This document shows, in pieces, positions 35,554 to 45,189 of a stretch of DNA of 64,000 nucleotides (the first letter of the stretch is position 1; each line of letters starts with the position of its first letter). Both the position numbers and the translations under genes were made by a program. The stretch is from the NCBI GenBank assembly GCA_964583985.1, contig CAZOYD010000001.1, positions 99,532-163,531 of the forward strand, written 5' to 3'. The notes beneath the pieces are model-generated. The model was given only the letters and a program-made list of their open reading frames with translations, was not told the DNA's origin and searched no databases. This DNA is from an uncultured archaeon. Lineage in GTDB: Archaea > Asgardarchaeota > Lokiarchaeia > Sigyniarchaeales > SOKP01.

Positions 35554-36060
35554 TTAAGAAGGTCTTTCTTGTTCAAAAACATTAAGCAAGTTTTTTAATC
35601 TTAGATCTTGAATTATATTCTTCAATATGGCTTTACCAAGCGGTGTAACCCTAATAATGTCTAAATCTTCAATTTCTCTTAAATAATCATTAGCAATTAA
35701 AAATTTAATATCTGAATCCCACACATCAGAAAATAGGGTCATAAGATCTTTTTTTGGTAAATTTTCTTCTAATTCCTTACCAAGAGCTGTTATCAATGCC
35801 AAAATTCCATATTGGGAGGGTGATATTGTATCATCCATTCCATCGGTGGTTAACACGTAGAAGTTTTGATCAAAAAATTTAGTTTTTATTAGTTCAAATC
35901 CTACATTTTGCAAATTTTGGTAAACTTCACTTATAATTTCCTCAAAATCTTGGTTACTACTAAGGGTTTTCAAGTCTTCTTCTCTAACTAACTTTTGAGG
36001 ATTTGTTAAAATGAGTTTCGTTATTTTTCTAACCGTTTTTTCAATTTCTTGATTTTCCAT
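35554..36060 (-). CDS. Hypothetical tandem winged-helix protein
   Basis: ISPSQYGILAL..FLIANDYL..IRVTPLGK wHTH-like pattern; last gene of operon. Confidence 0.6.
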   Translation of the reverse strand: MENQEIEKTVRKITKLILTNPQKLVREEDLKTLSSNQDFEEIISEVYQNLQNVGFELIKTKFFDQNFYVLTTDGMDDTISPSQYGILALITALGKELEENLPKKDLMTLFSDVWDSDIKFLIANDYLREIEDLDIIRVTPLGKAILKNIIQDLRLKNLLNVFEQERPS

Positions 36061-36063
36061 AAT

Positions 36064-37680
36064 CTAGTCACTATCTATAATTTTTATTATTTTTATATTG
36101 TTAATTTGATTTTTTAGTTCTAAATTAGATATGATAAAGACGATCGTATAATCATTGAAAGTTGAATTTCGTTCAAACAATTGAATTAATTTTCGAATTG
36201 TTCTGAATATTGATCCTCGTTTATTATAAGTATCAGGAATAAAAGCATTTGAAATAATGATTGTTTTTGATCTTTGGAGCATCTTTATTGCAATTTGCAA
36301 TATAATTATAAAATAAATCTTTTCAGGGGTAGTTAGGTCATTAAATGGTAAATTATCGTTCTTGGTTCTGGTAAATTGAGGATGAATTAATAATTTTTTA
36401 TAATCCTCTGTAATTGATATTTCTAGGTTTATTCGTAAATTTATCTCATTTAACAATAAATTGAGTGTTTCCTCTAATTTAGTCACATGAGACTCTAATA
36501 TGAAATACCCTTCGAACATTTTATCGAATTTTTGATCTGCATCAGAAATAGTCATTTTATTTTTATTTTTATTTAAAAAGTTAATTAATTTGCCAAGTTC
36601 GTCTGTTAAAGCCTCAAAATTAATGATAGAATCATCATTTACATACGTTTCACTTGTTAAAATCGTTTCCATTCTTAATTCAAGATCTGATAATGCGAGT
36701 TCTATTTGGGAAGGGGTTTTAATAGACTTAAAATCGATTTTTTGTACTTGTTCACTCAAGCTTACATCTAAACTTGTAAGTGCCTTTTTTAGTTCATTTT
36801 CTTTTATCTTTGCTTTATTTTCATCTTCCTTTATCAAATGTACTAGTTTATCATAATCTTGAGTAATGATTTTAAATTGGGGGAATAAATCGTCATGTAT
36901 CTGTGAAATTTCGTCAAGATTTAGTTTTAATTTGTTAATCTCGTACTGAATTTCTCTTGCTTTAATTTGTAATAATCTGATCTTCTCAGCATTTGTCATT
37001 TCAGAATCTAAATCTAAAAGAGAATTGAGTTCTTCTTCATTTGTTATTAATTTTGAGGATATATCCATATTACGAGTAATTTTATTAATATAGCTGAAAC
37101 ACATTTTTTTTTTATTTGTCAAGTTTTGTAAAATATCATTATTCTTCTGGATATCTTTATTTACATTGTCAATTTGATTTTTCTTTTTTTGATAATCTTG
37201 TGCTAAATAGCTTAATTTGGTTTTGTTTTCTATTAATGATTTATTTAACTTTTCTAATAAATCCGAAATTGCTTTTATTTCACTTGATTGTTTAAATGTT
37301 TTAGCAATCTCTAATTCTTTATTGAGTCGAGATTTTTCATTATTTAGTGTAATGATTTGAAACAATTTTATTATTTTGTGAGTCAGATTAATTAGATTTG
37401 ATAATAAATCAGTATTTAAATCGATTGATTTAAGATAATTCTTTAAATATTTTAAAAGATTAATTGATTCTTTAATCATAGGGTAAAAAGAATCTAGATT
37501 CTTTATTAAATTCTCTACGGGTATAGGATCTAAATTTGTGATTAATTCAACTAAATTTTCATCCTTAATAGAGATTATATCATCGTCTTTAATCTTACCA
37601 ATGATTAAAGTTAATCGATCTTGGATGAGATATTTCCGTGTTCCTATAGTTATTTGTCCATGCTCATCTTTAATATTCAT
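36064..37680 (-). CDS. SMC/Rad50-like coiled-coil protein with degenerate ABC head
   Basis: Long central coiled coil; N-terminal LTLIIG and C-terminal LTTPEK..IIISN resemble decayed Walker A/signature/Walker B. Confidence 0.6.
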   Translation of the reverse strand: MNIKDEHGQITIGTRKYLIQDRLTLIIGKIKDDDIISIKDENLVELITNLDPIPVENLIKNLDSFYPMIKESINLLKYLKNYLKSIDLNTDLLSNLINLTHKIIKLFQIITLNNEKSRLNKELEIAKTFKQSSEIKAISDLLEKLNKSLIENKTKLSYLAQDYQKKKNQIDNVNKDIQKNNDILQNLTNKKKMCFSYINKITRNMDISSKLITNEEELNSLLDLDSEMTNAEKIRLLQIKAREIQYEINKLKLNLDEISQIHDDLFPQFKIITQDYDKLVHLIKEDENKAKIKENELKKALTSLDVSLSEQVQKIDFKSIKTPSQIELALSDLELRMETILTSETYVNDDSIINFEALTDELGKLINFLNKNKNKMTISDADQKFDKMFEGYFILESHVTKLEETLNLLLNEINLRINLEISITEDYKKLLIHPQFTRTKNDNLPFNDLTTPEKIYFIIILQIAIKMLQRSKTIIISNAFIPDTYNKRGSIFRTIRKLIQLFERNSTFNDYTIVFIISNLELKNQINNIKIIKIIDSD

Positions 37681-37684
37681 TTGT

Positions 37685-38725
37685 TCATTCCTGACCAAAA
37701 TGTTTTTTGAATTTCTTAAATTCTTCTGCCTTCAATTTTTTCCTCTTTCTAATTAAATCTACAGGGTCTTGTTCTTGGTCTATTCCAATTAAATTTTCAT
37801 CTTGAAATTTTTTTTCGAATTGAGATTTAAATAATTCTATTTTCTCAGATATTTCTTCACTAATTTCTAATTCTTTAGATTGATTGAAAGGAACATCGAT
37901 ATTACTTAATTTTTCTCTTGATTTTTTCCTCCTTCGTCTTTCAAATTCTTTTGCTGACAATTTTAGGTAATCTTGATAGCCTTGATTTTGTTCTTCTTGC
38001 TTTAATTTCAATTTCTCTAATTCTTCTTTTTCCTTCATTTTTTGTAGGAGGGCTCTTCTCTTGTTTAAATCAGAGGCTGTTAGCAATTTTTCATATTCAC
38101 TAAAGAATTTCTCAAAAGATAAATCAGGATCGTCATAAAAAGCATTCTTGAAATCATTTTTAATCTCATTATCAAATTCCTCAGGAATCATCTCCAATTC
38201 TTTTTTTAATTTTATAGCTGTAATTTTTCCGTAATAATCCCTTATTACAGGGATTAATTTCATAAAAATTGAATTTTGATTTAATGAATCTAAAAGATTA
38301 AACCAATCATTCATCAAAATAGAATTAACATAGGAAATCTGTTGATTTACCTTACTAATTTTTTGCTGGGAAATTAAGTAAAGCCCCAGAATTTTGCTCT
38401 TTTCTTGATCAATATTCAGTCTTAGTAAATGATTTTTATATTGTTCCTTGTATTTTTTTAGTAAATTATCTTGAAAATTAAGGAAATTAGTGATATTCTT
38501 GTTAGTGATTTGAGTGAGTTCATTATATAATTCTTGGAGGTGAGTTAACATCTTTTCAATCTGTGTTTTTTCAATTTTAAGAGAATTTACTTCATAAATC
38601 TGCTTTTTTGATTGGTTGACTTGTTCTATGGAAAAAGAAAGGGAATTCAATCTATTTTGCAAGGTATTTAATGGTTCTGTAATGCACTTAATTCTATTTA
38701 AATCAAAAATTAAATCTTTTGACAT
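37685..38725 (-). CDS. Hypothetical coiled-coil protein
   Basis: 346-aa ORF, charged helical, EFERRRRKK segment. Confidence 0.7.
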   Translation of the reverse strand: MSKDLIFDLNRIKCITEPLNTLQNRLNSLSFSIEQVNQSKKQIYEVNSLKIEKTQIEKMLTHLQELYNELTQITNKNITNFLNFQDNLLKKYKEQYKNHLLRLNIDQEKSKILGLYLISQQKISKVNQQISYVNSILMNDWFNLLDSLNQNSIFMKLIPVIRDYYGKITAIKLKKELEMIPEEFDNEIKNDFKNAFYDDPDLSFEKFFSEYEKLLTASDLNKRRALLQKMKEKEELEKLKLKQEEQNQGYQDYLKLSAKEFERRRRKKSREKLSNIDVPFNQSKELEISEEISEKIELFKSQFEKKFQDENLIGIDQEQDPVDLIRKRKKLKAEEFKKFKKHFGQE

Positions 38726-38762
38726 TATTCATCACTTCTTTTTTTATAACTCTTTTAAGGAA

Positions 38763-39869
38763 TTAAATTTCAGGGGGTTTTTTAGTGCTATTTAGTTTTT
38801 TCTCATTTCCTTCATCTATTTTTATACTTTTAGTTGTAGCTAATGTATTTTGACGTTCGACATGAATTGCTGTGCCACCGACTAATTTTAAGGAATCATG
38901 GAAGAGATCGTAAGTTAGGAGATCACTAGATATAGCCTTTAATAATGCAACCTTAGTCCCTCTTTCAATATCAGATCCAGAATACCCATGAGTTAATTTT
39001 AATAACCCCTCTCCTTTAATTTTTTTAGAGATTTCATTCCATAATACCATATCGTCAAATTCCGTGACTTTTTGACCCATTTTATTTGTGATATCTTTTT
39101 CAATCTTTTGTATACGATTATATTCATCATCTAAACGAGTAAAAATTTGATCATCAACGCCTATTTTTGCTTGCTTGATTTTATCTAAAAAAGCTTCAAT
39201 TATCTGTTTTCTAAGATTATAGTCTGGAAAATCAAACTTGAAATGAAATGTAAATCGCCTCCATATTGCTGAATCTAATTGATGTTGGTGATTTGTAGCT
39301 CCAAAAATAGCAAGGGGTACCCCTTCATAATTTACTCTATCAATTACTTGTAAAAAAGAAATAACAGCACGTTTGATCTCTCCTACCTCATGAATATTGG
39401 ATCGTTCTGATCCAATAGCATCAATTTCATCAAAAAATAAAACAAAAGCACCTCTTTCTTTAGAAATTTCTGAGGATAACTCAACTACATTTCGTATGTT
39501 TTTAATTGTATCTCCTAATAATGGTGAAACAAGGCGATCTGACTCTACAACACAAATTGGCACATTATATTTTTTTGCAAATCCCCTGGTTAGTGAGGTT
39601 TTTCCCGTTCCTGGAGGTCCATATAAAAGTACAGTGAGATTTGGATTTAAGTTTGTATTTTTTAACTTTTCAATGAATTCATAATACTTATTCAAGGCTT
39701 TAAAAAATTCTTCGAGAAGATCTTTGATTATATCATTTCCTAATATATCATCAACTGATTCTTTTATATCTTCTGGAAAATATACCGCACCATATTTTCC
39801 AATTCTTTCTTTAATAACATCGTCAGTATACACTACTTTTTTTTCAACATCATCTTTTAATTTGGATAT
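38763..39869 (-). CDS. Single-ring classical AAA+ ATPase (probable ATA start at 39869)
   Basis: LLYGPPGTGKT, LFFDEIDAIG..R, ATNH..LDSAIWRRF, GYSGSDI. Confidence 0.92.
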   Translation of the reverse strand: MSKLKDDVEKKVVYTDDVIKERIGKYGAVYFPEDIKESVDDILGNDIIKDLLEEFFKALNKYYEFIEKLKNTNLNPNLTVLLYGPPGTGKTSLTRGFAKKYNVPICVVESDRLVSPLLGDTIKNIRNVVELSSEISKERGAFVLFFDEIDAIGSERSNIHEVGEIKRAVISFLQVIDRVNYEGVPLAIFGATNHQHQLDSAIWRRFTFHFKFDFPDYNLRKQIIEAFLDKIKQAKIGVDDQIFTRLDDEYNRIQKIEKDITNKMGQKVTEFDDMVLWNEISKKIKGEGLLKLTHGYSGSDIERGTKVALLKAISSDLLTYDLFHDSLKLVGGTAIHVERQNTLATTKSIKIDEGNEKKLNSTKKPPEI

Positions 39870-39898
39870 TTTCTTTCACCTCTTTTTTCGGTTTATTC

Positions 39899-41203
39899 TT
39901 ACTTAGGTTTTTTTCTTTCTTTATCAAACTTTTCACAAAATAGAGCAATTTCATCAATGAGCTCTTTTAAATTATCGATTTGCGACCCAATAAAGTTAAA
40001 TATTTCCTTTCTATACTGAATTGAATCTCTTATTTTCATTTTATCTAATCCAAGATAATTCGGAAAACAAATTAATTTCATTAAATAAGGTAATATTTTT
40101 TCATTGGTTTGTAAATCTTTAAAAATTGTATAAAATATATTTTCCTCTGATAATTTCCATTTTAAAATCCCCATATATATTAAAAATGCAAAATTCATCG
40201 AAATCCAATTAATTAATTCTTTTGATAAAAAGCCTCTGCGTTGAGAAACAAAAGCAAGGTAATGTAAGATAAGGGTTTCATTACTGAATTGAGGAAAATA
40301 TCTTATAGTTCCATCGGATTGTTTATTTGTCCTTAAAAAATTATTTTCTTCTAATATACTTACAAATTCCTCTTTAGGTGCTAAAAATAGATCATCGATT
40401 AAACGCATTCCAATTCGTTCAGCTAAATTTTCGATAGATTCTTCTTCAGCATTAGCAATGGAGTCTATATAAGGTAAAAATATTTCACTTTTTAAAATCA
40501 TTGGAATTTCACGATTAGGCTGTTCGGGAAAATCACCGAAGTTAGGATCAAGATTAAATAATGATGTTATATTGTTAATTATTTGATATAATTTTGGAGA
40601 AATACCAGGTATTTCAAATGAATCTAAATTTTCAAGTTTCTCTCGATAATAGGTGTGTGATTGCAATAAATGCCTTTGGCATTCATAATATTCATTCGAA
40701 AAATTAAGTAGTTTTTCATATATTATTTTTAAACTTGCTCCTTTAGGAAATAAACGCTCTTCTATATATTTACTAAGAGAATATAAGTACGTCTCATCGA
40801 GATTTTTTTGATCTGGATTTGTTATGTGTCTTAAAATATATAAAGCCCCGATTGATTCTTGTAAAAATTCTATGATATAATCTTTTATATCAATAATTGG
40901 AATTGTTCCCCTATACTTAATGATAAAATTCTTGATTATTTCATAGATATTGGATCGATACATTGCAGAAAATTCGGATAATGCTCTTACTTTTCTTATA
41001 TTTCTTTTTTCCTCTTCTTCACGAATTTTATCTAATATTTCCGTATCATTTAATAAATCCGCATCCAAATCACTGATTATTTTTCTTGTTTCTCTAAGAA
41101 TTGGTCTCATATGACTGATAAAAGTAAGATATCTTGGTAAAATATCAGTCCATTTTTCACGCTTCCGACCGGATTTTCTAGTAGATTTTTTTGAGTAACT
41201 CAT
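39899..41203 (-). CDS. Conserved-looking hypothetical protein
   Basis: 434-aa ORF in operon, no motif recognised. Confidence 0.75.
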   Translation of the reverse strand: MSYSKKSTRKSGRKREKWTDILPRYLTFISHMRPILRETRKIISDLDADLLNDTEILDKIREEEEKRNIRKVRALSEFSAMYRSNIYEIIKNFIIKYRGTIPIIDIKDYIIEFLQESIGALYILRHITNPDQKNLDETYLYSLSKYIEERLFPKGASLKIIYEKLLNFSNEYYECQRHLLQSHTYYREKLENLDSFEIPGISPKLYQIINNITSLFNLDPNFGDFPEQPNREIPMILKSEIFLPYIDSIANAEEESIENLAERIGMRLIDDLFLAPKEEFVSILEENNFLRTNKQSDGTIRYFPQFSNETLILHYLAFVSQRRGFLSKELINWISMNFAFLIYMGILKWKLSEENIFYTIFKDLQTNEKILPYLMKLICFPNYLGLDKMKIRDSIQYRKEIFNFIGSQIDNLKELIDEIALFCEKFDKERKKPK

Positions 41204-41221
41204 AATTTTTCATTTAATGAT

Positions 41222-42361
41222 TTATTCATTTTCATATCCAACTACAATTTCTGCAAAAATATTAGCAATTTCCACAAAAATCGGAATCTCAACACGTACC
41301 AATTCACCTAACACCCATTTATTGACATCTTTTAATAGGAAACGTATCTGATTATGAATTTTTTTATTTATTTCTGAATCAATGATTTTTGACAGCCATA
41401 AACCTCCTCCTAATCGATAAGCAATGATTTTTATAAGTGGTTCAAATAATGGTTCTAATACTTGTCGCATCATCCAAGATTTTGGAATGATGCTCATATT
41501 ACTCTCATCATAACCAGGATCATTTAAAATAGGATTAGTTTCGTCCACGGAGAGTTTTGGCATAAAACTCAATAATAAAATTAAGGCGAAAATAGCACAG
41601 ATTCCGTTTATGGTATAAGAACCTCCAATTTTTTCAATATTATCGCTATTTATTGCAATGTTTGCTAAAAACATGCATATAAATACGTTCCTATCAAAAT
41701 TCTCGGATACATAAGCATATCCTAATTTAGGATCAAGTATCAAGTATTTCTCTTCAAGAATTTTAATGATATCATCAGGAAAGGTGAAAAAAGTGTAAAT
41801 TTTTTCTTCGCTCCGTCTTACATCTTTCTCAATGACTAATTTTTTAGAGACTAACCCAAACATATTAACAAGTTCTTCCAGCTGTTTTTTAATGTAGTGG
41901 CGAGGTTTATTTGGATCTCCAAACATTGCATAAAATTGATGATCTACGATATGAAAATCATTCCTTTTACTGAAAGCTTCGACCATTCTATCTATAATAG
42001 GAGTTTGAGTTCCTGATGCAATTGCTTTTGCTTTTGAGGAGACAAAACCATTAAGTAATTCATTTATAATAAAGTCTTGTTCGTGGGTTCGGGACTTTAA
42101 AATCTTACTAAATGCTTCTGAGAAATTCTTCGTCTTAGGGAAAAAAAAATTTTGAATTTTTTCATTTATTGCCTTCTTAAATAAGTCCCCATCATTTCGT
42201 GGGAAATGTAACTTCATATTTTCAAGTCTTTGTATTAAGGCATCTTTTGCTCCGGGTATATTCTCAACATCCCGTTTTGCCACTTGCTCAATTGCTAATT
42301 CAAGACCTTTTTCAAAAGATTGTAAGAGTTGCCTCCAAGTCGAATCTATAATTTCCCCCAT
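41222..42361 (-). CDS. Hypothetical protein
   Basis: 379-aa ORF in operon with GGTGGTG SD. Confidence 0.75.
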   Translation of the reverse strand: MGEIIDSTWRQLLQSFEKGLELAIEQVAKRDVENIPGAKDALIQRLENMKLHFPRNDGDLFKKAINEKIQNFFFPKTKNFSEAFSKILKSRTHEQDFIINELLNGFVSSKAKAIASGTQTPIIDRMVEAFSKRNDFHIVDHQFYAMFGDPNKPRHYIKKQLEELVNMFGLVSKKLVIEKDVRRSEEKIYTFFTFPDDIIKILEEKYLILDPKLGYAYVSENFDRNVFICMFLANIAINSDNIEKIGGSYTINGICAIFALILLLSFMPKLSVDETNPILNDPGYDESNMSIIPKSWMMRQVLEPLFEPLIKIIAYRLGGGLWLSKIIDSEINKKIHNQIRFLLKDVNKWVLGELVRVEIPIFVEIANIFAEIVVGYENE

Positions 42362-42376
42362 TTTGCACCACCTAAT

Positions 42377-43336
42377 TCAGGTCCAATTTAAATCATTAGA
42401 TATTTTTTTTAGAGCATTGATCAATGGTCTAATATCCTTTTTATCATAAATATTTGGAGACGATACTCCCTTTTGCGCTTTCCATCCCATTTGAGTGCCT
42501 TCAGCCATCTCTCTCTGTCCATATTTAATTAGTTTACTAAAATCTCGAGTCCACCAATAAAATCTAAGCCATCGTTTATTTGGATTATTACTTGAATAGA
42601 TGACAACTATCGCTTTCCACTCACCTACAAGCCATTTGATGGTGATTCCACTTATAGGCATGTAGAAATTAATAGGAAAATTACTATGAAATTGCAAGTC
42701 AAGGTCTTCAGGATCAATATTAAAAATTGGTTGATTATATCCTTCTAAAATCACAATTTCTGAACAATGTTGGCATATATAATGAGATTTATGTTTTTCC
42801 ATTTTCTGCTGGCAATTGGGGCATGTTTTATTCTCAAGGATGCGATATTTAATGATGTCTAATTTTTTATTTTTGTCTGCATCCTCTTTAGTTTCTGAAT
42901 TGGTTTTACCATAACTTCCTTTCCAATTCCATAATTCATCGAAAAATTCATCAATTTTTTCCAATGCTTTAATTAAATTATTTAACACGCTATTATCATA
43001 AATTTTAATCATTCCTGCATGTTGGTATGTTTTCCACCACGAAATTCTTACGTATCTCTCACTTTTTAACAAGGTACTATGACAAATTAAAGCTGCTAAT
43101 ACTCTAGCTTCAGTTTTACTGATAATTATCCCTTTCTCACAAATTTCATACTCTTTATTCAGAGTTAGCTGGGTATGGAAATACTCTCCATCTAAATATT
43201 CTCCTTTCTTGTCGGTTTCTTCTGAAATTTGTTCACTGTTTTTGTCTTTAGGCTTCAATATCTTTCTACATTGAGGGCATTGGAAAATTCCTGCTACAAG
43301 AGGTTCCATTTCAACATTACATGAGGGACATTTCAT
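42377..43336 (-). CDS. Duplicated Zn-ribbon + PC4-like domain protein
   Basis: CPSC..CPQC and CPNC..CQHC ribbons, each followed by a YVRISWW / WLRFYWW..WKAQKGV unit. Confidence 0.7.
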   Translation of the reverse strand: MKCPSCNVEMEPLVAGIFQCPQCRKILKPKDKNSEQISEETDKKGEYLDGEYFHTQLTLNKEYEICEKGIIISKTEARVLAALICHSTLLKSERYVRISWWKTYQHAGMIKIYDNSVLNNLIKALEKIDEFFDELWNWKGSYGKTNSETKEDADKNKKLDIIKYRILENKTCPNCQQKMEKHKSHYICQHCSEIVILEGYNQPIFNIDPEDLDLQFHSNFPINFYMPISGITIKWLVGEWKAIVVIYSSNNPNKRWLRFYWWTRDFSKLIKYGQREMAEGTQMGWKAQKGVSSPNIYDKKDIRPLINALKKISNDLNWT

Positions 43337-43338
43337 AA

Positions 43339-44439
43339 TTATTCATTCTTGCTTTCTATTATTAATCTTTCATAATCTAAATTTAATAACTTCAATTCTT
43401 TTTTAGTCAAATCTGAAATTTTGTCATTAATTTCCACAATTATTTCTCTTAATTTTATGAGCGTGTCTTGAATAATATTTACTAGTCCATCTTCATTAAA
43501 AGAGATTTTTTCGATGAATTTAATATAATTATGTTTTTTGTTTTTCCCAGAATAATAGTTTCTTAATTCATTAATCTGAACTTGAATCTTATTTAATTCG
43601 CATCTGGAATTTAATAAGAAGGTTAGATCTTTGTACCATTTTTTATATATATCATTTGATTTTTCAATATTATCTAAATCAAATTTATCTGATAATTGAA
43701 TTTTAGAATCCTTTAAAAAAGAAATAACTTCTTTTTCTTGTTCTATTGCTTCATCTATCTTTTTCATTCCGGATTTAGAATTTAATACGGGATCAAATAA
43801 CTCAATGTAATTATTGACTTTTTCCATTAATTCTTCAAATCGTTGGTAAAATCCTTCAATTGTGATTTCAATTTTAATCGCTTGATAGATATTACCATAA
43901 TGATCTAATATATAATAGAGATCATTAGAAAGTGTGTAGTCATGTTCTCCAATTTCATATATAAATGGATGAATAACACTGCTTTTTTCACAACTAACAC
44001 TCTTTAATCTCGTGAGTGCGAGATTGAAATTTCTTCTGGTTAGAAACTTGAATTTTTTTTTTATAATTAGGAAGAGAACATCATCAGGTATGGAAATCGT
44101 GTCATTTTCAATTGTGATGGTTTCTTCTCCTAATTTGAGTATAAAATCTCCTTCTAATTTATTAAATTCGCCTAAACTCCTTACATTTTTGAAAACCCCT
44201 AGATCTATCATTATACCAATAAAATCTTCATCCCAAAATTTAATTACGTTATTTTTAAAAATTTCATCCAAGATTAAAACTCTATCATAAGATTCAATCA
44301 ATTTTGAATCAGTTAGATCTTTAAATAAATCATTACGAATAATATACATAAATAAGATGATGTAACGCATATCTACATCATCAAGGATCCGGATTAACAA
44401 ATTTTCATCTTCTTCTATTGAAAGAGACTTATGTTCCAT
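43339..44439 (-). CDS. Hypothetical winged-helix + coiled-coil protein
   Basis: LTRRNFNLALTRLK..YTLS wHTH-like segment followed by helical C-terminus; first gene of operon. Confidence 0.65.
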   Translation of the reverse strand: MEHKSLSIEEDENLLIRILDDVDMRYIILFMYIIRNDLFKDLTDSKLIESYDRVLILDEIFKNNVIKFWDEDFIGIMIDLGVFKNVRSLGEFNKLEGDFILKLGEETITIENDTISIPDDVLFLIIKKKFKFLTRRNFNLALTRLKSVSCEKSSVIHPFIYEIGEHDYTLSNDLYYILDHYGNIYQAIKIEITIEGFYQRFEELMEKVNNYIELFDPVLNSKSGMKKIDEAIEQEKEVISFLKDSKIQLSDKFDLDNIEKSNDIYKKWYKDLTFLLNSRCELNKIQVQINELRNYYSGKNKKHNYIKFIEKISFNEDGLVNIIQDTLIKLREIIVEINDKISDLTKKELKLLNLDYERLIIESKNE

Positions 44440-44610
44440 GCCTATTGTCCACTCATCTTAATTTTAATCATTTCAATTAAAAAGAGTAATGATCATAATT
44501 AAGCATTCCTAAAAAATTTTATGGTCTCCTATAATTTCTCTTTAAAAAAGCGAAATTTTTTTAGTTTTGGTTCACTTATCATTATTGTAATAATTTTCGC
44601 GTGAAGTTCT

Positions 44611-45189
44611 ATGGGAAGAAGAAAAAGAAAGCAACAATCGTATAAACGAGTAAAAAAAGTGCCAAAAATTTTCACATGCCCAAATTGTGGGGAGAAAAGC
44701 GTCAAAGTAGAAAATATTAGAAAGTCAGCAATTGCAACGGTCAAATGTGGATATTGTGGATTAAATAGAGACGTGATAGTTAATTCTATATCCGAACCAG
44801 TTGATGCTTTTGGAGATTTCATTGACATTTATTACGCGGACCAAGAGCTACAAAGGTTAGAAAAAAGAATCTCTAAATTAAAAAAAGAAAATGAATGGGG
44901 TGAATTAGCTTTATCGTATTCTATTTTATCGGATATATGTCGAGCAAAAGCAGCAGCGGCTTTGGATGAGGAAGAGGGTGATAAATTGGAAATGGCAACT
45001 CAGTGGCGTACAAAATCCGAAGAATACAAGCAACTTGAAAAGGGAGCTTTGCTACAATTGGACACTCTTGAACTTGAAAAAGGTATTAAAACTGATGAAG
45101 ATTCGTTATTTGATGAAACGGAAGGGAAGGTAAAGCGTGAAAAGAAAATTGAAGATATCTTTGATGACCCTGGATTTTTAGAGTTTTAA
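44611..45189 (+). CDS. elf1: Transcription elongation factor Elf1 with C-terminal extension
   Basis: MGRRK..FTCPNC..CGYCG..EPVDAFGDFID. Confidence 0.88.
   Translation: MGRRKRKQQSYKRVKKVPKIFTCPNCGEKSVKVENIRKSAIATVKCGYCGLNRDVIVNSISEPVDAFGDFIDIYYADQELQRLEKRISKLKKENEWGELALSYSILSDICRAKAAAALDEEEGDKLEMATQWRTKSEEYKQLEKGALLQLDTLELEKGIKTDEDSLFDETEGKVKREKKIEDIFDDPGFLEF

Follow-up and report, generated by a model that had tools for sequence, protein, structure and literature searches.

A motor-less, hinge-less SMC homologue encoded with a KITE-type protein and an AAA ATPase in a conserved operon of Lokiarchaeia

The subject of this analysis is an operon of eight genes, called here g1 to g8, located on the minus strand at positions 35554 to 44439 of a stretch of 64,000 nucleotides (the window) from contig CAZOYD010000001.1 of an uncultured archaeon of the Lokiarchaeia (assembly GCA_964583985.1). 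The seventh gene, g7, codes for a homologue of the SMC5/6-like SMC proteins from which the hinge, a large part of the coiled coil and all of the motifs for ATP binding and hydrolysis have been lost. Sister operons exist in which the SMC is of the active, ATP-competent type. Since g7 and g8 are homologous to proteins of these active operons, and since g1, g3, g4 and g5 are common to both types, the window operon is to be regarded as a derived, motor-less form of an SMC5/6-type system, joined to a previously undescribed accessory module that contains an AAA ATPase. We favour, with moderate confidence, the view that the operon encodes one vertically inherited complex of Loki-type Asgard archaea, descended from an archaeal SMC5/6-related SMC-kleisin-kite machine.

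A sequence-only reading of this DNA had described g7 as an SMC-like protein with dead motifs, a description that the structural model and the alignment of orthologues bear out. In the AlphaFold2 model (predicted local distance difference test, pLDDT, of 81), N-terminal strands are followed by a helix running up (residues 69-212), an apex (213-235), helices running back (236-419) and a C-terminal alpha/beta half-head. The coiled coil measures about 140 residues per arm, and the apex is merely a short loop and a helix, with no hinge domain in the model. When compared by Foldseek with the PDB, the model had Rad50, Smc, MukB, JetC, Smc5/6, condensin, cohesin and LmuB as its top matches (E from 4.6e-9 to 1e-4), and the best 50 were SMC, Rad50, MukB, JetC and LmuB chains. 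The Pfam models SMC_hinge and SMC_N gave no match to g7. The alignment of 18 orthologues reads ...FTLIxGKFK... at the place of the Walker A motif, LTTPEK at that of the signature and IIFSNLF at that of Walker B, followed by LIFLISN. Walker A (GxxGxGK[ST], the position of which reads GKFKxx), signature (LSGG/SSGQ) and Walker B (hhhhDE) are degenerate in 18 of the 18 sequences.

The active-type operons, which are rarer among the relatives than the dead type, were best seen in G031, a closed genome of 4.36 Mb from a second family (f2). It belongs to the same GTDB genus as G027, which carries an ordinary operon, and possesses the divergent set only (L047 395-11137; L197 2483-4354). There, genes like g1, g3 and g4 and the AAA gene are accompanied by genes for an SMC of 1057 aa and for proteins of 322, 313 and 176 aa, the last one a homologue of g8; a g2-like gene lies just past the operon, on the opposite strand. 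The SMC keeps the motifs GKNGSGKS, SSGQK and IDEFD intact and is hinge-like in its middle part, and its best matches among PDB sequences are Smc5 and Smc6 (E from 5e-9 to 5e-8), ahead of Smc. That it might be a fusion of g6, g7 and g8 was ruled out, since nothing of an SMC is missing from it and its motifs are intact. The 313-aa protein shows a weak match to Nse4_C (E 1e-3).

Other operons of this type were found with g3, a profile of which retrieved only 39 proteins from 1.84 billion representatives. For the 10 matches (of 39) whose contigs were examined, the AAA gene lay two genes downstream in eight cases, one contig was too short, and the weakest match (E 1.4e-5) had neither an AAA nor an SMC gene nearby. 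Six contigs extend past the AAA gene; they carry g1-, g3- and g4-like genes, the AAA gene, an SMC gene (for 1050-1200 aa, unless truncated where the contig ends) and then, where the contig continues, three genes for proteins termed here X, Y and Z, of about 300, 300 and 165 aa; X has several weak matches to winged helices. A hinge-like segment is a feature of the active-operon SMCs. One further contig has g3, g4 and the AAA gene, the next gene being cut off. Genome G329 has the active gene order, with a fragment of g2 at the contig end. The g1-, g3- and g4-like genes and the AAA gene are, in sum, common to dead and active operons, and g2-like genes are present beside two of the active ones, those of G031 and G329.

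Three lines of comparison connect the two types. Against an alignment of the six active-operon SMCs, g7 gave an hhalign probability of 96.4% (E 1.1e-9) with a match collinear through the C-terminal head, in which LTTPEK of g7 is paired with HSSGQK of the active proteins and IIISNAF with ITAIDEF; significance was reached only with this six-sequence alignment, the comparison of g7 with the lone G031 sequence being not significant. For g8 the match is to Z, the product of the last gene of the active operons (98.6%, E 5e-16); hhalign detected no similarity between g8 and X. Lastly, galactokinase and Lsm genes adjoin both the dead-type operon of the closed genome G328 and the active-type operon of the closed genome G031, so that the two types sit at the same chromosomal site. 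In the g3 tree, the dead-type sequences stand on one side of a branch and are short-branched; the active ones are long-branched and diverse.

A few oddities were met in these operons. In L104 a gene for a 334-aa protein lies on the opposite strand between the AAA and SMC genes, and in the metagenome contig L101 (885-3878) a second SMC_N protein, of 997 aa, is encoded divergently and directly upstream of the g1-like gene of an active-type operon. In G327, of family f2, the position of g7 is occupied by a gene for a 678-aa protein (L194 6580-8616) flanked by the usual g6 and g8. It was considered as an intermediate and rejected, for it matches significantly neither the g7 profile nor that of the active SMCs. 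The genome of the window has a single hinge-bearing SMC, of 1154 aa, with a weak hinge match (contig C68, L095 2431-5895); its best match is of the condensin/cohesin type and its operon also codes for proteins of 400, 215 and 178 aa of no known family. The strongest SMC_N matches in that genome are to an open reading frame of 1477 aa (contig C38), with no hinge match. An SMC with a strong hinge, like those of G176 and G031, was not found there.

The second subunit whose nature is established is g8, an Nse1/3-like KITE protein, whose tandem winged helices the sequence-only reading had already noted. Its AlphaFold2 model (pLDDT 86) consists of two winged helices, WH1 (residues 2-72) and WH2 (81-138). 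In the Foldseek search MAGE-G1/NSE1, Nse1-Nse3-Nse4 and MAGE-A3 lead, ranks 1 to 8 are Nse1, Nse3/MAGE and ScpB, and JetB and MukE come 12th and 14th. The VIA comparison gave a Z of 10.3 for MAGE-G1/NSE1 (152 residues aligned, root-mean-square deviation 17.7) and of 9.9 for Nse1-Nse3-Nse4 (152 aligned, 4.0). At lower Z both domains are covered by chain 7qcd_E of the Smc5/6 holocomplex, by JetB and by ScpB, nearly all other matches being to a single winged helix. The comparison with MukBEF, Jet and Nse-type structures, proposed beforehand as a check, has returned an SMC/Rad50 fold for g7 and a KITE fold for g8. The g8 gene adjoins g7, and its conservation is about 60%.

In SMC complexes the N-domain of the kleisin binds the neck of the SMC, and its middle binds the kites. 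The prediction of a three-chain complex, made with g7, g8 and residues 1-232 of g6, shows the same arrangement: helices 6-107 of g6 contact the neck of g7 (84-120 and 359-398), and residues 109-164 contact g8. It thus places g6 where a kleisin would be, with two helices packed on the neck and g8 held further along. The score was 0.63, against 0.42 for the best control; the runs share at least 80% of the contacts, and the pLDDT of the partners is at least 67. The mark used for such scores is reached by 58 of 80 solved complexes and by 2 of 110 mismatched pairs, a calibration which is only rough here because custom alignments and three chains were used. Part of the 0.63 may also come from likeness to solved SMC-kleisin complexes. 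The reading of the operon as an SMC-kleisin-KITE set therefore stands for g7, by fold and homology, and for g8, by fold, and changes as to the kleisin-like bridge. This is more likely to be g6 than g1, first described as a winged-helix and coiled-coil protein, because the active operons have an Nse4-like protein in addition to g1 and because g6 is the protein predicted to lie on the g7 neck and g8. The 75 relatives of g6 are annotated as hypothetical proteins at most; no Pfam domain is found in any of them, and the named sources are metagenome-assembled genomes of Asgard archaea.

The product of g5 is a classical AAA ATPase with all of its catalytic motifs intact. The PF00004 match reaches 90.5 bits (cut-off 21.2), and Walker A (GPPGTGKT), Walker B (FFDEID), sensor-1 (ATNH), the WRRF arginines and GxDIER are all kept in the 15 aligned orthologues, from dead- and active-type operons alike. 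Only about 60 residues precede the AAA domain, which confirms the lack of a substrate-recognition N-domain noted at the outset. The best models were those of the defence ATPase IetA/IteA (PADLOC 1e-58; NCBIfam 4e-52), the bit score for NF042959 being 177 against a cut-off of 510. A Pfam scan found no IetS serine protease in the operon, and g5 is best described, by sequence, as an IetA-like AAA core and not as part of an Ietter system. No close paralogue was found in the genome of the window. A helical insert of about 50 residues (around 222-275 of g5), between the large and small subdomains, is restricted to the dead-type proteins and absent from all nine aligned active-type ones; it may be an adaptation to the new scaffold. 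It had been supposed that a separate AAA ATPase might replace the lost ABC ATPase activity. This idea has to be given up: the same AAA protein is also encoded beside SMCs in which Walker A, signature and Walker B are all intact, and it is therefore not a replacement but an ancestral partner, left after the decay of the SMC motor.

The remaining accessory proteins are less easily placed. In scans of Pfam, NCBIfam, PHROG and PADLOC, family matches were limited to g5 and to the zinc ribbons of g2, with no assignment for g1, g3, g4, g6, g7 and g8. Profile searches of PDB sequences with the alignments of g1, g2, g3, g4, g7 and g8 returned only coiled-coil or zinc-ribbon noise, and the ESM Atlas gave no usable match for g4 and, for g2, its own Promethearchaeota clusters only. 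The homology of g1 to the 399-aa product of the first gene of the G031 operon is full-length (hhalign 94.7%, E 6e-8). The two halves of g2 match each other (97.9%, E 3.5e-13), as expected of the duplicated zinc-ribbon protein first proposed; each half consists of a CxxC...CxxC zinc ribbon, a beta-rich domain with an (S/Y)WW motif and a C-terminal helix. A resemblance to PC4 had also been suggested. The order of strands and helix in the repeat, known from sequence only, is compatible with Pur-alpha- or PC4-like binders, with a zinc ribbon added before each repeat; a search of the whole genome with PC4 (PF02229), at E values up to 10, gave no match on g2. The protein probably binds nucleic acid through its zinc-ribbon repeats. 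With about 80% identity within the genus, g3 is one of the two most conserved proteins of the operon, and it shows a weak similarity to g4 (58.8%, E 9e-5).

The distribution of the operon was determined at several levels. With tblastn, the eight genes were found in the same order and with the same flanking genes in 12 of the 12 genomes of the genus that were fetched. The order is maintained in other genera, and in family f2 wherever the contig extends, including the closed 6.04-Mb genome G328, which means that the operon is not a chance arrangement. Within the genus (tblastn, 12 loci), identity to the window is about 80% for g3 and g4, 71% for g5, 66% for g2, about 60% for g1 and g8, 39% for g6 and 35% for g7. 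A six-frame search with the g7 of the window as query detected it in 22 of 23 other genomes of the genus and in none of 16 genomes from other families of the order. The g3 profile, applied to 399 genomes in all, matched 117 of 133 genomes of family f1 and 13 of 14 of family f2 (130 of 147), with no match in the five genomes of the two other families of the order nor elsewhere in the phylum (about 250 other Asgard genomes). For g4, the numbers were 61 of 67 in f1 and 6 of 7 in f2, with one marginal match (E 3.7e-5) in 225 genomes of other Asgard families. The hosts are two families of one order of the Promethearchaeia/Lokiarchaeia. Nearly every genome has one copy of g3; two full-length matches were seen only in G351 (9% contamination), and both score like the dead type. 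The locus is, then, a core, vertically inherited one and not a patchy island, the two possibilities set against each other at the start.

Comparison with known systems helps to define what is particular to this one. Comparative genomics has already revealed archaeal operons that encode SMC5/6-related SMCs together with Nse4-like kleisins and Nse1/3-like kites (10.1101/2024.01.07.573240; PMC8665677). The searched text of these two reports makes no mention of an AAA ATPase partner or of a motor-less form, and a wider literature search yielded nothing either. The likeness to Smc5/6-Nse1-Nse3-Nse4, archaeal or eukaryotic, resides in the homology of g7 to an SMC that best matches Smc5 and Smc6, in the tandem winged-helix fold that g8 shares with Nse1 and Nse3-MAGE, in the helical g6, which the complex prediction puts between the SMC neck and the kite, and in the protein with the weak Nse4_C match encoded by sister operons. 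The differences are the absent hinge, the short coiled-coil arms and the lost Walker A, signature and Walker B motifs of g7, the lack of detectable kleisin homology in g6, and the five extra conserved genes, that of the AAA ATPase included, of which the papers searched say nothing in connection with SMC5/6-type complexes. MukBEF, Wadjet JetABC(D) and Lamassu LmuACB resemble the operon in that an SMC-family protein is encoded with kleisin-like and KITE-like partners, and JetC, JetB, MukB, MukE and LmuB are among the structural matches; their SMCs, however, are active ATPases. As for IetAS (Ietter), the IetA/IteA core is the closest sequence model for g5, whereas the N- and C-terminal regions and the gene context differ.

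How such a complex might work can be outlined. The g6-g7-g8 assembly would be a passive, DNA-associated clamp or tether that does not cycle by engagement of ABC-ATPase heads. A hexamer of g5, targeted by g1 to g4, would be the sole energy input and would assemble, open, load or strip the scaffold on DNA, presumably the same job that it did for the ATP-driven ancestor. The biological role is likely to be in chromosome maintenance, that is, DNA repair, the handling of junctions or segregation.

Several points weigh against this reading and were taken into account. No sequence similarity of g6 to any kleisin (ScpA, MukF, Nse4 or Rad21) and no Pfam match were found, and hhalign detected no similarity between the g6 profile and either the Nse4-like Y or the X of the active operons. 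With g7 replaced, the control still reached 0.42, so that the margin of 0.21 barely passes the mark of 0.20, and predictions that lay one coiled coil on another can be spurious. The single origin of the dead type is weakly supported in the g3 tree (74/43). Two genomes of the same genus that are 99-100% complete (G109 and G284) have no match to g3, g4 or g7, and the single-contig genomes G352 and G353, of genus g12, have none to g3. It seems, then, that a few lineages have lost the operon, which makes it dispensable. The DNA binding of the subunits is deduced from family resemblance, and the roles given to g1-g4 are guesses. Finally, g6 and g7 diverge far more quickly than g3 and g4 do (35-40% versus 80% identity within the genus), which fits the loose constraints on coiled coils but also an arms race.

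This last possibility leads to the best surviving alternative, which we nonetheless hold to be unlikely: the locus would be an SMC-family defence against viruses or plasmids, akin to Wadjet, Lamassu or the restriction of extrachromosomal DNA by eukaryotic SMC5/6, with the dead SMC as a sensor scaffold and the AAA protein as effector or switch. The rapid divergence of g6 and g7 within the genus would agree with it, as would the alternation of active and dead types between species of one GTDB genus (G031 and G027), the few complete genomes that lack the operon, the IetA/IteA models as best matches of g5 and the presence of JetC and LmuB among the Foldseek matches of g7. Defence islands, though, are patchy and mobile. 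The present locus is near-universal and nearly always single-copy; in both families it occupies one site and has the same housekeeping genes around it, and integrase or mobile-element genes were not seen nearby. This distribution disfavours the defence option among the three functions (chromosome organisation, segregation or defence) first considered for the complex. Nor was any nuclease, protease or other effector domain detected, such as the JetD and LmuA nucleases carried by the patchy Wadjet and Lamassu systems. PADLOC matched no system beyond the AAA core; its other matches were marginal (JetC on g7, E 0.12; LmuB on the zinc ribbon of g2, E 0.03). The IetA score, moreover, is far under the family cut-off, and an IetS partner is missing.

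A role away from DNA is improbable to a greater degree. According to it, the SMC relic would be a structural coiled-coil scaffold, for instance for protein remodelling or for a cytoskeletal or membrane assembly dismantled by a Vps4-like AAA ATPase. This would accommodate the disappearance of the hinge and of all nucleotide-binding motifs from g7, the lack of nucleic-acid-binding signatures of g1, g3, g4 and g6 in the library scans, and the LDSAxWRRF motif of g5, which we take to resemble that of the Vps4/katanin-type clade. The retention of the KITE subunit and the zinc-ribbon protein speaks against it. In addition, these accessory genes are also found with SMC5/6-like SMCs that are ATP-competent and have a weakly Nse4-like protein encoded next to them, which ties the accessory module to SMC-type, hence DNA-related, biology. 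That g6-g8 is a decaying, functionless remnant carried along with functional g1-g5 is hardly credible: g6 and g7 are indeed the least conserved genes and the g7-position protein of G327 gave no significant profile match, but the frames are open, full-length and of constant size in 21 of 23 genomes of the genus, in further genera and in f2 wherever examined, motifs such as G34, N205 and the LTTPEK region are conserved in g7, g8 is conserved to about 60%, and an interface between the subunits is predicted.

Coming back to the motor-less SMC5/6-type complex, a broader proposal can be made, which we offer as tentative and rather doubtful. Asgard SMC5/6-type complexes would ancestrally use a dedicated AAA module (g1-g5) for loading, opening or removal; in most Lokiarchaeia the module would have sufficed, so that the SMC lost its motor and hinge and stayed as a passive DNA clamp. 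If this is true, the operon provides a natural SMC-kleisin-kite complex that works without ATP hydrolysis by the SMC, and a possible prokaryotic forerunner of the AAA-dependent (Cdc48-type) or Nse5/6-type regulation of SMC5/6. Of the eukaryotic SMC complexes, SMC5/6 is understood least, and its origin has been traced to Asgard-type archaea. The accessory set tied here to Asgard SMC5/6-like operons comprises a classical AAA ATPase, a protein with two zinc ribbons and three others without a known family, and is not reported in the papers searched. A motor-dead and hinge-less SMC kept under selection in more than 100 genomes raises the questions of what such a scaffold can do without ATP cycling and of whether a second ATPase can drive it. 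The dead and active operons found at the same site in closed genomes of one order (G328 and G031) constitute a natural comparison, and some of these genomes may be from cultured strains. Should the AAA module remodel an SMC-kleisin-kite ring, a simple system would be at hand in which to test how the loading and unloading of SMC5/6 are regulated.

The layout of the locus is given in Table 1. The open reading frames fill the whole interval, with intergenic spacings of -14 to 65 nt. Their listing and the conserved order agree with the eight tightly packed minus-strand genes of the sequence-only reading, whose gap range of 2 to 40 nt was close without being exact. An alternative start for g7, at the ATG in position 37680 used by the closest relative, would give a protein of 538 aa and turn the g6/g7 overlap into a 4-nt gap; judging from the sequence, it is probably the true one.

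Table 1. Genes of the operon, with their positions in the window
Gene	Positions	Strand	Length	Description
g1	43339-44439	-	366 aa	No known family; first gene of the operon
g2	42377-43336	-	319 aa	Internally duplicated zinc-ribbon protein; Zn_ribbon_6 match, E 1e-5
g3	41222-42361	-	379 aa	No known family
g4	39899-41203	-	434 aa	No known family; basic N-terminus; highly conserved
g5	38763-39833	-	356 aa	Classical AAA ATPase; PF00004, E 1.6e-25
g6	37685-38725	-	346 aa	Helical, with a charged C-terminal tail; candidate kleisin-like bridge
g7	36064-37698	-	544 aa	SMC/Rad50 head and coiled coil; no hinge; ATP motifs degenerate
g8	35554-36060	-	168 aa	Tandem winged-helix protein, KITE-type

On one side the operon is flanked by genes for an Lsm protein, a CobW-type GTPase, an AN1 zinc-finger protein and SAM synthetase, and on the other by those for Elf1, a radical SAM enzyme and a protein with an eRF1 domain (Pelota/eRF1-like); no integrase or other mobile-element gene was found among these neighbours. 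The Elf1 gene (44611-45189, plus strand) is divergent from g1 and differs from its relatives by a length of about 10-11 residues (193 versus 203 aligned columns); an antisense open reading frame (44529-44828) overlaps it.

The junction of g6 and g7 (37680-37700 in the window) has a peculiarity of its own. In six relatives (L018, L019, L035, L036, L037 and L048) the conserved N-terminal 60-100 codons of g7 are open and contain no ATG, GTG or TTG. Of the in-frame stops that turned up within g7 matches, the one that was read (G022) proved to mark only where the upstream gene ends, ahead of a later ATG start. A GTGA adjoining the g6 stop is conserved, but it is in frame in only some of the genomes, and a non-canonical start, termination-reinitiation, frameshifting or assembly errors could each be the cause of this peculiarity.

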